Assembly (NCBI GenBank): GCA_963719505.1 | Contig: CAVRCF010000001.1 | Location: forward strand, 992,001 to 1,056,000 | Source: Halobacteriovoraceae bacterium | GTDB lineage: Bacteria; Bdellovibrionota; Bacteriovoracia; Bacteriovoracales; Bacteriovoracaceae | Direction: 5' to 3' | Length of the DNA: 64,000 nucleotides | In this document: in pieces, positions 31,501 to 32,920 of the stretch | Numbering within the stretch: position 1 is the first letter of the stretch | Layout: every line of letters starts with the position of its first letter | Translations under genes and position numbers: made by a program | The notes under the pieces: model-generated | What the model saw: the letters and a program-made list of their open reading frames with translations, nothing else | Database searches by the model: none | What the model was told of the DNA's origin: nothing

Positions 31501-32920
31501 TGTTCTAAACGAAAAGCTTATTGGAGAAATGGTTGAAGAGCGTTTTGAATGGTTTAAAAAGGCTCGCTCAGAACTTGGTGATATAGATTCACCTGCAAAG
31601 CTTGATGAGTATGTCGATATGGTTTCGAACCTACAAAGAGATCTTGTTTCAATTCATCCTTTTGGAAACGGTAATGGAAGAACGACAAGAGAGGTGGCCT
31701 TAAATTACCTTCTCGTAAAAGAAGGCTTTCCACCGCCAAGATTAGTTAATCCCAATGCAGATATATATAAAAGTGCTAAACAGTGGTCTGATGAAGTTAA
31801 AGAGGGAATCATTGCCTCTGATCACCTTATGGATGATCTCATTGAAAGACAGCGTATGGGCCTCAAGTTGGAAAACTCTTCAGAGCTTGTTATTCCATTT
31901 AGAACTCCAGCTGTTTCTTTAAATTTAAAAACTGGAACTAAGTTTAAAAATATGGAAGGGGTCGAATACATTGATCCAAAACTTTACCGTGAAATTGTGA
32001 AGAGAAAAATTGCGGAAGATGCAACTTTTGCCTCGAGAATTGAAACGGCTCCAGAGCAAGCTTGGGAAGAAATTAATAAAGCCGCTGAAAAAACATTTAG
32101 TGAAAATAATATTTATTACAACCACGCAAAAAATGGCATTGAAAGAGTTGAGATTGGCTATGTCGATGAAGACTTTCTTGAAATGTTTGGTAAGGCATCA
32201 TTTGACGACGTTGAAAAATTTAATTTCAAAATGAATCAGTGGTACGACGAACGTGTTGTTTGGAGAGGGCTTGCCTCAAAAGCCGTTGAAAAATCAGAAG
32301 GAGAAATTCTTCAGATGTTTAAAGAATTAAATAAACATATGGCCTCAAATGCCGTTTTAAGAAATGCAGCGGATTCATCTCCTGACGCAATAAGAAAGGC
32401 AGCCTTACAGGACTTCACAAAGTACAATGATGATATCTTTGGTGAGGGGCTTGTCAACATGGCCAGGGATCACAGCGAGACAGGACCGATGTATGGAATT
32501 AGTTATGGTTACTCAACATCAAAAAATAGAGAAGTTGGAAAAGCATTTTCAATGGGGGCGATGGTTATTGCTGAATACGGAGCTCACAAAGCTCCAGAGC
32601 TTCAAGCTCTTTTGAAATCGAGAATTCTCGTCGGCGCAAGAAAAGCGCATAAGGATGTTGATCTTGGAAGGTTAAAACAATTGAGACCTGAGTTTTCTTA
32701 CAAATATGGAAGGCAGCAAGAGGTCATGGGAATAGGTGCAAGTGATCCAGATGCGATTTCAATTATTCAAAGAATAGATGCAGATGGTGGAGTTATTGAA
32801 ACCTATCTTAGGAATCCTGAGCACCCTGAGCAGATTTGGCTGGTAAAAGGCGACATAAGACCTGGGGATACTCCTACAGCTGAAAATCTAATTAAGACAA
32901 TCGATTTAAGAGCTAACTAA
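28523..32920 (+). CDS. Giant Sec-exported protein: Cys-rich N-terminus, hydrophobic segment, Fic domain, C-terminal ADP-ribosyltransferase-like domain
   Basis: Signal MKILLTILLCFCSLQAFA; Fic motif HPFGNGNGRTTR (31655-31690) preceded by the GNFRK flap; ART triad VVWRG (R1248), YGYSTS (S1331-S1333), QQE (Q1398/E1400). Confidence 0.85.
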   Translation: MKILLTILLCFCSLQAFAQLPANCTEGECVANLVEELEELNSVFNKECMAQKDSDQSVDDYFEQNGISEKCYVMLSEISVKQQKLQSIATQLEVAVGENEVRSCQVPDSGNLLNSQIQDINAVNSQASCSEERKKEVKKSCSSDLNCFMFASAMGMGGDVAEKLIPDSMKIPNCNLGDDSCTTQLVSGFIDSVMTFFSGAWDLLKMAKNGVEKQWNKFWGWVTDAEDHSSTSQLAMAEASEDDGVFSMLVDDFSGTMSRMWQGLVGSIKEWLKTDIFCEKWEGIPRASKCIQPYTDFDCASCKTFATGLCAATGVIVAEIVPAFLTGGIVTAAKHGINGAAKIAKVFKVSSKAAQALKKTKIVSKVSKKVSKIDDIISLSSTVSKIGAKLKTALSVAGKYLLSPLAKKTTAIGKSLKALSSKSKMFMAETSSGKMIVFSLKALKKTGKVIIYPIDNPMTTFAFKKGMTSFDKALVLGAKKIGLATKTIVGVEKASSSAYRSLLKMEEAKILNKVDNAENVKISRLYLDEVKPHRKKIVSDVFESQSENFNDIVETLYPELKYGKLSDNIPEGEIIAAEKEIWEQIKNVRDGPYKDKLIESFHFKIVGSTARARLVSKTPLYTDIVRNTKLNSADRLSEALRITGRSKGTQKLEEALEKAHLVGEEGGVYNYTWRELREKYRHLTDGGFSQDEADLLIRQGLAGRPPTRQLLTETESKFMGHNADILDKKYLQKRDQLLKIDKVDEPVSKSKNIFSRTRNWINKRMNGPSLVKNPKIVDQIESIYFIDNRHGHTGLQSIMDGKSTIKASQVGTRYGEKEFKNYLNAKKYLLEESPELSIQTLKNVQAKMMEGGVEGLSEAYIGNFRKGGVYGNVPPSHAITEQIKEEIVKNPYLHWIETEKIAKGDTFEYAGKIIYPNAKTIEPRGLEIITQRNPSLVAEIEEFQALQKLKSKIGVDLADKKYSDLDLPDFIKSKYKNTSDLEIAIRKVELDEFVLNEKLIGEMVEERFEWFKKARSELGDIDSPAKLDEYVDMVSNLQRDLVSIHPFGNGNGRTTREVALNYLLVKEGFPPPRLVNPNADIYKSAKQWSDEVKEGIIASDHLMDDLIERQRMGLKLENSSELVIPFRTPAVSLNLKTGTKFKNMEGVEYIDPKLYREIVKRKIAEDATFASRIETAPEQAWEEINKAAEKTFSENNIYYNHAKNGIERVEIGYVDEDFLEMFGKASFDDVEKFNFKMNQWYDERVVWRGLASKAVEKSEGEILQMFKELNKHMASNAVLRNAADSSPDAIRKAALQDFTKYNDDIFGEGLVNMARDHSETGPMYGISYGYSTSKNREVGKAFSMGAMVIAEYGAHKAPELQALLKSRILVGARKAHKDVDLGRLKQLRPEFSYKYGRQQEVMGIGASDPDAISIIQRIDADGGVIETYLRNPEHPEQIWLVKGDIRPGDTPTAENLIKTIDLRAN

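Follow-up and report, generated by a model that had tools for sequence, protein, structure and literature searches.

A predicted R-S-E ADP-ribosyltransferase domain, missed by standard annotation, follows the AnkX-like Fic domain of a putatively exported protein of Bdellovibrio-like bacteria

Introduction

The closest described structures to the domain reported here are those of TreX and the Tre1-type toxins (PDB 8s2m, 9gco). TreX is described as carrying its Arg, Ser and catalytic Glu on β1, β2 and β5 (R15 ends β1, S54 is on β2 and E100/E102 start β5), with an E-x-E motif, an Arg of FtsZ as its target, T6SS delivery on an Rhs protein and an adjacent immunity gene (PMC11606950). Our ADP-ribosyltransferase (ART) domain has its three catalytic residues on the equivalent elements and would, like TreX, belong to an interbacterial weapon; in contrast to TreX, the protein has Q-x-E, a putative Sec signal, a helical insert of ~80 aa and a Fic domain fused to the ART, and no immunity gene is linked to it. 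Next in similarity are the A subunits of the AB5 toxins (cholera toxin A1, LT, pertussis S1 and EcPltA): Arg7 and Glu112 are given as the active residues of cholera toxin, Cys as the acceptor of pertussis toxin and Lys/Asn as those of EcPlt (PMC8120803). Unlike these, the protein described here has no B-pentamer partner, no A2 linker and no sequence-level match to them.

Two further groups are relevant on account of their ARTT loops, for which the published pattern is X-X-aromatic-X-X-[E/Q]-X-E (PMC7827354, PMC8120803). The E or Q of this pattern is reported to go with the acceptor: Gln with Asn in C3, Gln162 with guanine N2 in ScARP, and E-x-E with Arg (PMC7827354, PMC11606950). The pierisin family (pierisin-1, scabin, ScARP) has in common with our domain the R-S-E fold and an aromatic-x-x-Q-x-E loop (PMC7827354, PMC12945103), whereas our domain has Tyr/Phe for Trp, a near-neutral pI and no ricin-type lectin domains. 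The Asn-specific C3 exoenzymes, as described, combine Q-x-E with a Tyr/Phe aromatic (PMC7827354), which is exactly the pattern found here, and also have S-T-S. No C3-like chain, however, is among the best 50 matches of either of our VIA-align lists. To our knowledge, bacterial prey have no RhoA, the target of C3.

The Fic domain N-terminal to the ART is closest to AnkX, the Fic-type phosphocholine transferase of Legionella, with a profile match of ~230 positions that reaches beyond the Fic core; the ankyrin repeats are absent here, and where the AnkX alignment has HPFRDANGRTF the motif is HPFGNGNGRTTR. How Bdellovibrio-like predators halt the physiology of their prey from within is poorly understood. 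No description of the protein was found in 8.1 million PMC papers and bioRxiv (subscription-only papers lie outside this search) under Bdellovibrio with Fic domain, AMPylation or ADP-ribosyltransferase, and neither 'Fic' nor 'Bdellovibrio' occurs in a 2021 review of bacterial ADP-ribosylation systems.

Domain architecture and the Fic domain

The window, i.e. the whole 64,000-nucleotide stretch of Halobacteriovoraceae DNA that was analysed, contains a 1465-aa open frame at 28523-32920 (+), as read from the ORF and its translation, with the following features in the gene and immediately upstream of it:

28002..28526, + strand: gene of P0197, a 174-aa exported protein, 5' of the large gene (ORF and N-terminal hydrophobic leader)
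28523..32920, + strand: whole gene, predicted secreted multidomain protein (signal peptide, Cys-rich helical N-module, AnkX-like Fic, R-S-E ART)
28523..28576, + strand: putative Sec-type signal peptide, residues 1-18 (A-F-A / Q cleavage site judged by eye)
28577..30862, + strand: N-terminal extension, residues 19 to ~780 (all-α, 13 conserved Cys, missing in short forms)
29099..29281, + strand: segment predicted to be gripped by P0197, residues 193-253 (interface list of the complex prediction)
30860..31912, + strand: AnkX-like Fic domain region, residues ~780-1130 (Pfam, NCBIfam and PDB sequence matches)
31655..31690, + strand: Fic motif HPFGNGNGRTTR, residues 1045-1056 (Asn at position 5)
31910..32245, + strand: β-hairpin and helical linker subdomain, residues 1130-1241 (precedes the ART core; pLDDT 95-98)
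32246..32830, + strand: predicted ART catalytic core, residues 1242-1436, model residues 113-307 (VIA-align ranges)
32255..32269, + strand: V-V-W-R-G, the aromatic-Arg-Gly motif with R1248 (first core strand)
32273..32512, + strand: ~80-aa helical insert separating the Arg and STS strands (contains conserved H1317 and N1302)
32513..32521, + strand: S-T-S motif, S1331-T-S1333 (strand end, then helix)
32699..32722, + strand: ARTT loop Y1393-K-Y1395-G-R-Q1398-Q-E1400 (X-X-aromatic-X-X-[E/Q]-X-E pattern)
32831..32917, + strand: C-terminal β-strands extending the ART domain, residues 1437-1465 (model strands 308-313 and 327-332)

A hydrophobic leader also stands at the start of most of the homologues listed, several of which have a lipobox-like L-x-x-C.

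The Fic domain is recovered by Pfam (PF02661, E 2.3e-5, 25.6 bits against a 24-bit cut-off) and by the NCBIfam AnkX model (E 4.7e-7, far below the cut-off of that model). A profile of the family run against PDB sequences retrieves AnkX first (E 2.9e-14, profile positions 126-355), followed by FICD and other Fic proteins, and the single sequence retrieves AnkX at E 1.5e-5. When compared with the consensus HxFx[D/E]GNGRxxR the domain falls within the Fic/Fido proteins, with Asn at position 5 of its motif in place of the canonical Asp/Glu; among the 42 motif-bearing rows (of 47 long-form rows) 36 have N here and 6 have D. Both the Fic and the ART motifs are intact in 56 of the 73 representatives of at least 600 aa, whereas 12 have a degenerate Fic motif with an intact ART, 2 show the reverse and 3 have both degenerate; from this pattern the two enzymes would appear to be independent of each other. 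A coupling of ART and Fic of the SidE type was down-weighted, as the two motifs decay independently.

Fold and active site of the ART domain

The initial annotation, drawn from the nucleotide sequence and its translation, had proposed an ART-like domain on the strength of three motifs, and the translation of 32240-32920 reads exactly as it claimed: VVWRG at 32255-32269, SYGYSTS with its STS at 32513-32521, and YGRQQEV with Q1398-Q-E1400 at 32714-32722. Residues 1130-1465 were modelled with AlphaFold2 at a pLDDT of 97.2 and a pTM of 0.93, with residue 1130 numbered as model residue 1. Foldseek, a check that the annotation had suggested, was run against the PDB and places TreX at the top (E 8e-4) and then chains of cholera, pertussis, LT, PltA, MTX and pierisin, the E-values being marginal, with one match at ≤0.001 and query-normalised TM scores of 0.24-0.31. 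Upon re-ranking with VIA-align, all of the best 50 matches listed are ARTs. TreX leads with 127/128 residues aligned, an rmsd of 2.9, 16% identity and a Z of 9.2, which is only modestly above the Z of 7-8 that unrelated models can reach with this tool. Cholera toxin A1 (Z 8.8), LT-IIb (8.8), EcPltA (8.6) and pertussis S1 (8.0) align over ~131-139 residues with 7-11% identity, and the guanine-specific enzymes scabin, ScARP and pierisin-1 reach Z 7.1, 6.8 and 6.6, respectively. An unbiased search of 48,161 chains returns 13 at Z of at least 5, namely 12 named ART toxins and 9ld3, an ADPR complex with no protein name in its title; the lower ranks are mostly PARPs, DarT, exotoxin A, diphtheria toxin, Arr and Tpt1.

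The core alignments run from model residue 113 to 302-308 against TreX, cholera toxin A1, LT, EcPltA and pertussis S1, while the subdomain of residues 1130-1241 is covered, among the fold matches listed, only by weak and unrelated ones. W1247-R1248-G1249 lies within model strand 112-123, STS closes strand 200-204 and is followed by helix 207-214, and E1400 opens strand 271-275, a motif topology equal to that of TreX. Model residue 113 pairs with cholera toxin residue 1 and model residue 302 with residue 143, which by arithmetic on the ranges, not on coordinates, puts R1248 on Arg7 and E1400 on Glu112. The domain combines the features of the R-S-E clade, i.e. the split β-sheet fold of the ARTs, Arg on β1, S-T-S on β2 and an ARTT loop with the Glu opening β5, and the proposed R / S-T-S / Q-x-E signature is supported by fold, motif topology and conservation alike. 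The helical insert, estimated initially at about 80 aa, comprises 82 residues between R1248 and S1331 and is mostly helical in the model (helices 130-136, 147-152, 158-177 and 180-189 in model numbering); it could occlude the active site.

Loss of the motifs among homologues would have counted against an ART, and we examined this in an alignment of 83 family representatives with a mean column identity of 19%. The triad, R-[ST]-E, is complete in 78/83 and lost in 5/83. In the first motif W is found in 72/83, R1248 in 78/83 and G in 79/83; in the second, S1331 in 79/83, T in 72/83 and S1333 in 74/83; E1400 is found in 80/83. Against the mean column identity, conservation of the motifs in this alignment is above chance. 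Residues 1393-1400, Y-K-Y-G-R-Q-Q-E, conform to the published ARTT pattern, and the loop is among the best conserved stretches (F1391 73/83, Y1395 63/83, R1397 67/83, Q1398 67/83), with F replacing Y1395 in 7/83 and W in none. Position 1398 is Q in 67/83 and E in 11/83, or Q, E and R in 67, 10 and 1 of the 78 members with an intact triad. The S1 subunit of pertussis toxin also carries Q-x-E. Within the insert N1302 (82/83) and H1317 (77/83) are conserved; the latter, 14 residues before STS, recalls cholera toxin His44 and pertussis toxin His35.

A sequence family outside the profile libraries

Motif-based annotation, as had been anticipated, labels the gene only as Fic: Pfam yields PF02661 alone, NCBIfam only weak Fic-type matches, and homologues are named 'hypothetical protein' or 'Fic family protein'. 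The C-terminal 226 aa match no Pfam family at E≤1, the ART domain matches no NCBIfam ART model at E≤1 and only noise in PADLOC and PHROGs, and an ART Pfam family is found in 0/28 members of a scanned sample of homologues. All 54 matches of the family profile to PDB sequences at E≤10 are Fic proteins, with no ART among them, and the single sequence against the PDB gives no ART link, only two chance matches at E 0.25-0.31. Sub-threshold leads from the ESM Atlas (score 0.84-0.89) are DUF4765, ADPrib_exo_Tox, NarE, Mod_ADP_RT, DRAT and Lart1. As the domain escapes the sequence models of Pfam, NCBIfam and the PDB alike, we regard it as a new sequence family of the R-S-E clade. Judged by its model, it is a real and conserved ADP-ribosylating toxin-type domain that standard annotation misses, and the clade would gain a family absent from profile libraries, whose genes now go by 'Fic' or 'hypothetical' only.

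The N-terminal module and its predicted partner

Family members occur in long and short forms, the short ones aligning only from residue 780 of the long protein. The N-module specific to the long forms has 13 conserved Cys, conserved A318, E319, P322, F324 and T326-G328, and a conserved hydrophobic stretch at ~318-330. Its AlphaFold2 model is helical (mean pLDDT 73.3, pTM 0.41) and has no Foldseek match in the PDB at E≤0.001, long helical-repeat proteins appearing at E 0.3-2, and we give it no fold assignment.

The stop codon of P0197 overlaps the GTG start of the large gene by 4 nt. Searches of Pfam, NCBIfam, PADLOC and PHROGs gave P0197 no notable family, and the ESM Atlas leads to PsbP-C-terminal-like / DUF4946 clusters (score 0.95-0.96). 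An orthologue lies directly upstream in 23/25 long-form genes, as established by comparing coordinates by hand, and is absent beside short forms and beside a long form of the same genus with a different N-terminus; two Cys are invariant across 21 orthologues. Prediction of the complex of P0197 with the N-module gives ipSAE values of 0.93/0.93/0.92 against 0.01 for the best control, on a scale where the mark is reached by 116/157 solved and 2/215 mismatched pairs, a calibration that is only rough for the alignments used here. The partner has a pLDDT of 88-89 in these complexes and the contacts agree to at least 96%, falling on residues 193-253 with a core at 225-241 that includes the conserved E226, S230, L234, A237, A239 and S240; residues 206-212 and 218-230 have a pLDDT below 50 in the monomer model of the N-module. 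P0197 is, from these models, the predicted binding partner of the Cys-rich N-module in long forms. A role for it as the immunity protein of the ART was rejected: it has its own export leader, tracks the N-module and not the ART, and contacts residues 193-253.

Phyletic distribution and genomic context

The family comprises 126 representatives among 1.84 billion proteins and is present in 52/201 genomes of the class. The 60 named loci, found with a 12-row alignment, are from Bdellovibrio-like or Oligoflexia-labelled records except for two generically labelled MAGs, and the ART domain is nearly always fused behind the AnkX-like Fic domain. In the genome under study (3.69 Mb, 83.5% complete) the gene is single copy and stands among housekeeping genes with no secretion-system neighbours. 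Its GC of 0.37-0.42 matches the flanks, on which ground a signal of horizontal transfer was rejected. An IS66 transposase is encoded ~3 kb upstream. No adjacent immunity or hydrolase gene is seen in the window or at two short-form loci; the sole ARH homologue of the genome is on another contig, and Macro and NADAR were not found in the genome at its 83.5% completeness. A promoter/terminator scan was uninformative, with 14 promoter-like sites against 14.3 expected.

Mechanistic interpretation

We consider it likely that residues ~1242-1465 form a genuine and probably active R-S-E mono-ADP-ribosyltransferase, carried with the Fic domain as the cargo of an exported protein, and that its acceptor is not arginine, since position 1398 is Q. 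We infer the catalytic activity, the acceptor, the prey target and the role in delivery, the prey from the taxonomy of the homologues. NAD+ would be held in a cleft lined by R1248 of the first core strand, S1331-T-S of the second and E1400; E1400 would promote an oxocarbenium-like transition state, and the ARTT-loop residues Y1395 and Q1398 would hold the acceptor in place. This acceptor may be the side chain of Asn, Gln, Cys, Lys or Thr; a nucleobase is the less probable candidate. The exported protein would carry two enzymes, the AnkX-like Fic and, as constant cargo at the C-terminus, the ART, which would act as independent warheads on a conserved prey molecule in the cytoplasm, the compartment that supplies NAD+; since the protein is predicted to be Sec-exported and NAD+ is cytoplasmic, a route into the prey cytoplasm would be required. 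In the long forms the N-module, predicted to be bound by the co-transcribed and exported P0197, probably handles export, storage or delivery. Should this reading hold, the conserved exported two-enzyme protein would be a concrete and testable candidate for prey shutdown.

Far more tentative, and as a whole rather doubtful, is the extended proposal of a self-contained prey-intoxication device of Bdellovibrio-like predators, with two PTM warheads and interchangeable N-modules, one of them held by a PsbP-like periplasmic partner, that would mark a non-Arg residue or a nucleobase.

The initial annotation had read Q-x-E as hinting at DNA (guanine) or Asn as the target. One part of this stands, in that the literature links the acceptor to the choice of Q or E at position six of the ARTT loop, but nothing here favours DNA. 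Whether the target is protein, DNA or RNA cannot be told from Q-x-E alone; as close neighbours modify Cys or Lys/Asn, the motif says of the acceptor only that it is probably not arginine, nor do the structural neighbours, the ARTT Tyr and the near-neutral pI speak for guanine rather than a protein residue.

An ART that modifies guanine N2 (or cytosine) in the DNA or RNA of the prey, in the manner of pierisin, scabin and ScARP, and so blocks replication or translation, is in our estimate improbable. The loop arrangement is that of ScARP/scabin as reported, Trp159-x-x-Gln162-x-Glu164 (PMC7827354, PMC12945103), but the position of Trp159, described as the ARTT aromatic of ScARP that stacks on guanine (PMC7827354), is Tyr/Phe here, with Trp in 0/83, i.e. 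the Trp of the pierisin family is lacking, even if Tyr could still stack. Scabin, ScARP and pierisin-1 are among the structural matches listed, with alignments that start more N-terminally at model residue 79-83, yet the protein-modifying toxins score higher (Z 8.0-9.2 against 6.6-7.1, gaps under ~1-2 Z being weak evidence). A nucleic-acid target in a bacterial victim has precedent, because interbacterial R-S-E ARTs are reported to act on 23S rRNA, structured RNAs and tRNA (PMC11606950, PMC13617354). Against it, the ART core is not basic (pI 6.6; family median 7.06), a NADAR or macrodomain gene for self-protection was not found in the 83.5%-complete genome, and Q-x-E also fits Asn, as in C3, with toxins described as modifying Cys and Lys/Asn being structurally near (PMC7827354, PMC8120803).

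We give little credence to the domain being mainly an NAD+ glycohydrolase, by which prey would be killed or disarmed through NAD+ drain and not through tagging of one macromolecule. NADase activity is described as common to all R-S-E ARTs, with the catalytic Glu sufficing for hydrolysis and the first E/Q needed for transfer (PMC11606950), and no target can be named from the present data; but the strong conservation of the acceptor-recognising ARTT loop argues for transfer, and the alternation of Q and E at position 1398 resembles acceptor tuning.

AnkX-like Fic domains normally attack a nucleotide-diphosphate ester, and by analogy with SidE the ART might make an ADP-ribosyl-X whose pyrophosphate is then resolved by the Fic domain; this sequence we hold to be very unlikely, because the 12 representatives with a dead Fic motif keep the ART triad. 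Equally hard to credit is a role that is not aimed at bacterial prey, whether as a regulatory enzyme within the predator or as an effector against eukaryotes (grazers), for which the relatives AnkX and the cholera, pertussis and EcPlt toxins, all acting on eukaryotic GTPases or G proteins, and the housekeeping neighbourhood without secretion systems might speak, whereas the best match, TreX, is reported as antibacterial and acting on FtsZ (PMC11606950), the family is seen only in lineages of obligate bacterial predators (the two generic MAGs among the 60 named loci aside), the putative signal peptide counters a cytoplasmic housekeeping role, and the patchy presence in 52/201 genomes is as expected of an accessory weapon.

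The natural variation between Q-x-E and E-x-E inside this single family (67 against 11 of 83) offers a clean system in which to test the rule, of long standing, that this residue sets the acceptor.

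Architecture of the Fic-ART protein

The ART-like domain, whose Q-x-E loop was recognized in the initial annotation, occupies the last 227 codons of a large ORF, and translation of that ORF reproduces all of the annotated motif coordinates and residue numbers, with 82 residues intervening between R1248 and S1331. The features under consideration are:

28002-28526, +, P0197, a 174-aa ORF for an exported protein with its own leader, overlapping the big gene at its start codon
28523-32920, +, the big gene, GTG start, 1465 aa
31655-31690, +, Fic motif HPFGNGNGRTTR (residues 1045-1056) of the Fic domain (residues ~780-1130)
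32255-32269, +, V-V-W-R-G, with R1248
32513-32521, +, S-T-S (S1331-S1333) of S-Y-G-Y-S-T-S
32714-32722, +, Q-Q-E (Q1398-Q-E1400) of Y-G-R-Q-Q-E-V

Residues 1-18 have the look of a Sec signal peptide, and a hydrophobic leader, in some cases with lipobox-like motifs, is found at the start of most listed homologs. The N-terminal extension that follows, the N-module (residues 19 to ~780), is entirely helical, and conserved within it are 13 cysteines and a hydrophobic stretch. Its model is of moderate quality (pLDDT 73.3) and has no PDB match at E<=0.001. Short members of ~700-820 aa comprise only leader, Fic and ART, their alignment to the big protein beginning at residue 780. In a same-genus relative (L013:2014-6672) the N-terminal 600-700 aa are swapped with respect to the protein encoded at 28523-32920, with the Fic-ART part being 53% identical from residue 604; an ~80-aa module is present there in three copies, as against one here (residues ~627-704). 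Between these relatives the Fic-ART cargo stays constant and the N-termini vary.

For the Fic domain, the family profile recovers Legionella AnkX (E 2.9e-14 over ~230 positions) ahead of FICD, and the single sequence also matches AnkX (E 1.5e-5). As this best PDB relative is a phosphocholine transferase, the co-substrate may not be ATP. Position 5 of HPFGNGNGRTTR is Asn, as opposed to the canonical Asp/Glu; among the 42 rows of long forms that bear the motif it is N in 36 and D in 6, and among the 56 such rows of a mixed alignment D in 32, N in 23 and E in one.

A known fold in a new sequence family

The expectation that motif-based annotation would miss the ART domain was borne out: Pfam and NCBIfam assign the C-terminal part to no family at E<=1, the 28 sampled homologs yield Fic in 12 cases and an ART Pfam family in none, PADLOC and PHROGs searches return only noise, and neither the single sequence nor the family profile finds an ART among PDB sequences. 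Its ESM Atlas feature neighbors, all of them ART families (DUF4765/EspN, ADPrib_exo_Tox, NarE, Mod_ADP_RT, DRAT and Lart1), score 0.84-0.89, below the line of 0.9, and hence are leads only.

An AlphaFold2 model of residues 1130-1465, built from an 83-sequence alignment, has a mean pLDDT of 97.2 and pTM of 0.93. Foldseek against the PDB gives the Xenorhabdus Rhs toxin TreX as the best and sole match at E<=0.001 (E 8e-4), followed by cholera, pertussis, heat-labile, PltA, MTX and pierisin chains. Upon re-alignment with VIA-align, 11 chains reach Z>=8. Each of the 50 rows listed is an ADP-ribosyltransferase; among them are pertussis S1, scabin and pierisin-1, with which a comparison had been suggested.

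VIA-align comparison of the ART domain model with known toxins
TreX: Z 9.2 (127 residues, rmsd 2.9)
Cholera toxin A1: Z 8.8
LT-IIb: Z 8.8
EcPltA: Z 8.6
Pertussis S1: Z 8.0
CARDS: Z 7.1
Scabin: Z 7.1
ScARP: Z 6.8
Pierisin-1: Z 6.6

A Foldseek-independent search of 48,161 representative chains recovers 13 at Z>=5, of which 12 are named ART toxins; the title of the thirteenth, an ADPR complex, is uninformative. Distant members of the ART superfamily (PARPs, DarT, exotoxin A, diphtheria toxin, Arr and Tpt1) account for many rows at Z 3.3-4.3.

In the model, the first core strand contains R1248. The next one terminates in S-T-S, after which a helix begins, and the strand that comes after the loop opens with E1400. 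These predicted positions match those required by the R-S-E clade. TreX is arranged alike, its published description assigning R15 to beta1, S54 to beta2 and E100/E102 to the beginning of beta5 (PMC11606950), and the VIA-align range ends pair R1248 and E1400 with Arg7 and Glu112 of cholera toxin (residue names from PMC8120803). Residues 1393-1400 (Y-K-Y-G-R-Q-Q-E) conform to the eight-residue ARTT pattern X-X-aromatic-X-X-E/Q-X-E (PMC7827354). Judging by alignment ranges and secondary structure, the model would superpose residue by residue on known ARTs and have an open NAD+ pocket.

The ART assignment is thus supported by model, structural matches and motif placement. Since no sequence library or profile finds it, the domain represents a sequence family that is new to an already known fold and catalytic clade. 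What is new is this family and its architecture, in which an AnkX-like Fic and an R-S-E ART are combined with swappable N-modules and a dedicated, predicted partner; both fall within a well-known enzyme class and are limited to predatory bacteria. No description of it was found in PMC papers or bioRxiv.

Conservation of the motifs

By word-indexed search, residues 1130-1465 gave 81 full-length relatives, and an exhaustive HMMER search of 1.84 billion representatives gave 126 at E<=0.001, 85 of these at E<=1e-30. The 83-sequence alignment combines the domain from the window, 81 representatives from the HMMER search and one (P0083) from the word-indexed search, and excludes very long forms and most fragments below 200 aa. 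Against its mean column identity of 19% the motif columns appear prominently: R1248 (78/83), G1249 (79/83), S1331 (79/83), T1332 (72/83), S1333 (74/83) and E1400 (80/83). The complete R-[ST]-E triad is present in 78 of the 83. Position 1398 is Q in 67 and E in 11, which is classic ART active-site variation.

The triad is lost in five representatives (P0158, P0169, P0170, P0182 and P0185), the losses comprising K for R and absence of STS and of the catalytic Glu; the Fic His is also gone in three triad-less members. These five look like decayed or pseudo-enzyme copies that retain the fold.

The acceptor

The initial annotation had suggested prey DNA or a non-Arg residue as the target, based on a rule associating E-x-E with Arg and Q-x-E with Asn or guanine. 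Two sources (PMC11606950, PMC7827354) do contain this rule: Arg modifiers are typically E-x-E, the Gln of C3 goes with an Asn acceptor and its change to Glu turns C3 to Arg, and Gln162 of ScARP forms a hydrogen bond to guanine. By this rule Q1398 makes arginine unlikely, without selecting DNA. The proposed target has no specific support and stays a hypothesis.

We consider a non-Arg protein residue to have roughly an even chance of being the acceptor. A nucleic acid acceptor, though unlikely, has its precedents in ScARP, with Gln at the equivalent of Q1398 (PMC7827354), and in interbacterial R-S-E toxins, whose targets include rRNA and tRNA besides FtsZ and EF-Tu (PMC11606950, PMC13617354). 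However, where ScARP has a guanine-stacking Trp (PMC7827354), the ARTT loop here has Tyr or Phe, like C3; the ART core is not basic, and the top structural matches are protein-directed toxins, differences of 1-2 Z being weak evidence. Among the toxins matched, the acceptor is Cys for pertussis toxin and Lys or Asn for EcPlt (PMC8120803). An NADase-only domain and arginine as acceptor, disfavored by Q1398, are both improbable; the rest of the probability falls to an inactive ART or a target outside the prey. The ~10 divergent E-x-E members probably differ in acceptor.

Proposed mode of action

In the exported protein both the R-S-E ART fold and the Fic motif are intact, and predatory lineages conserve the two. 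Because both enzymes need cytoplasmic co-substrates and the protein is exported by an obligate predator, the prey cytoplasm would be the most plausible site of action. There, the ART would use NAD+ and the Fic domain a nucleotide, while in the long forms the N-module and P0197 may serve storage or delivery.

Among 73 representatives of at least 600 aa, both the Fic and ART motifs are kept in 56, the ART triad is kept with loss of the Fic catalytic residues in 12, the reverse is seen in two and both are lost in three, with the caveat that the most divergent rows may carry alignment error. Fic and ART hence appear to be independent warheads. An obligatory two-step reaction like that of SidE, considered because ADP-ribosyl-X chemically resembles CDP-choline, is disfavored by these separate losses.

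A predicted partner of the N-module

By coordinates in 201 genomes, an ortholog of P0197, which has two invariant Cys, lies directly upstream in 23 of the 25 genes with an open frame of at least 1400 aa and in none of the short forms. One exception is the same-genus relative, which matches the big protein only from residue 604, has a different N-terminus and lacks an upstream P0197-like ORF; the other also has a different N-terminus, in a genome of which some bases are withheld. Thus, P0197 tracks the N-module and not the enzymes. Its family is multi-copy (100 of the 201 genomes of the class, up to four hits per genome), and the orthologs directly upstream of long-form genes are the closest to P0197 within it.

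Complex prediction with N-module residues 22-520 and mature P0197, using author-built alignments, gave ipSAE values of 0.93, 0.93 and 0.92 as against 0.01 for the best control, with partner pLDDT of 88-89 and contact agreement of at least 96%. In calibration, 116 of the 157 solved pairs cleared the pass mark, as did 2 of the 215 mismatched ones; with author-built alignments such rates hold only roughly. The predicted interface centers on residues 225-241, which are conserved and disordered in the N-module monomer model. The prediction supports binding of P0197 to the N-module. In the ESM Atlas P0197 lies near PsbP-C-terminal-like and DUF4946 clusters (0.95-0.96). PsbP/DcrB-like folds include chaperones for hydrophobic segments of toxins, and by analogy such a role for P0197 is a lead.

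Distribution and gene neighborhood

The ART domain occurs once in the 3.69-Mb genome. Of the 201 genomes sampled from the class, 52 have it, as do 39 of the 145 high-quality ones. The 60 loci from named genomes are labeled Bacteriovoracaceae, Halobacteriovoraceae, Bdellovibrio, Pseudobdellovibrionaceae or Oligoflexia, except for two MAGs labeled only Proteobacteria or Pseudomonadota.

In GC content the big gene resembles its flanks, and its neighbors are housekeeping genes. Upstream lies an arginine succinyltransferase pathway; a TetR regulator and the E1 of a 2-oxoacid dehydrogenase lie downstream. Neither the big gene nor the genes at two short-form loci adjoin an immunity-like or ADP-ribosylhydrolase gene; in the genome (83.5% complete) the sole ARH homolog sits on a different contig, and searches for Macro and NADAR found none. 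An IS66-family transposase ORF (23681-25330, -, 549 aa) is located ~3 kb upstream of the operon, with a trypsin-like protease gene on one side and the arginine succinyltransferase genes on the other.

The E1 alpha domain is split over two ORFs, with positions 3-180 of the E1_dh profile in 33676-34320 (+) and 201-298 at the start of 34366-35730 (+), which runs on into a transketolase-like beta part. A frameshift, a sequencing error or a natural fusion/split could account for this. A 1290-aa ORF (12443-16315, +) has no Pfam family at E<=1e-5, and further sizeable family-less ORFs lie at 36052-37755 (-) and 58170-59612 (+). A 108-aa protein (40045-40371, -) has a Kazal-type serine protease inhibitor domain, which is unusual in bacteria; trypsin-like peptidase genes occur in the same window at 7227-8489 and 22680-23561.
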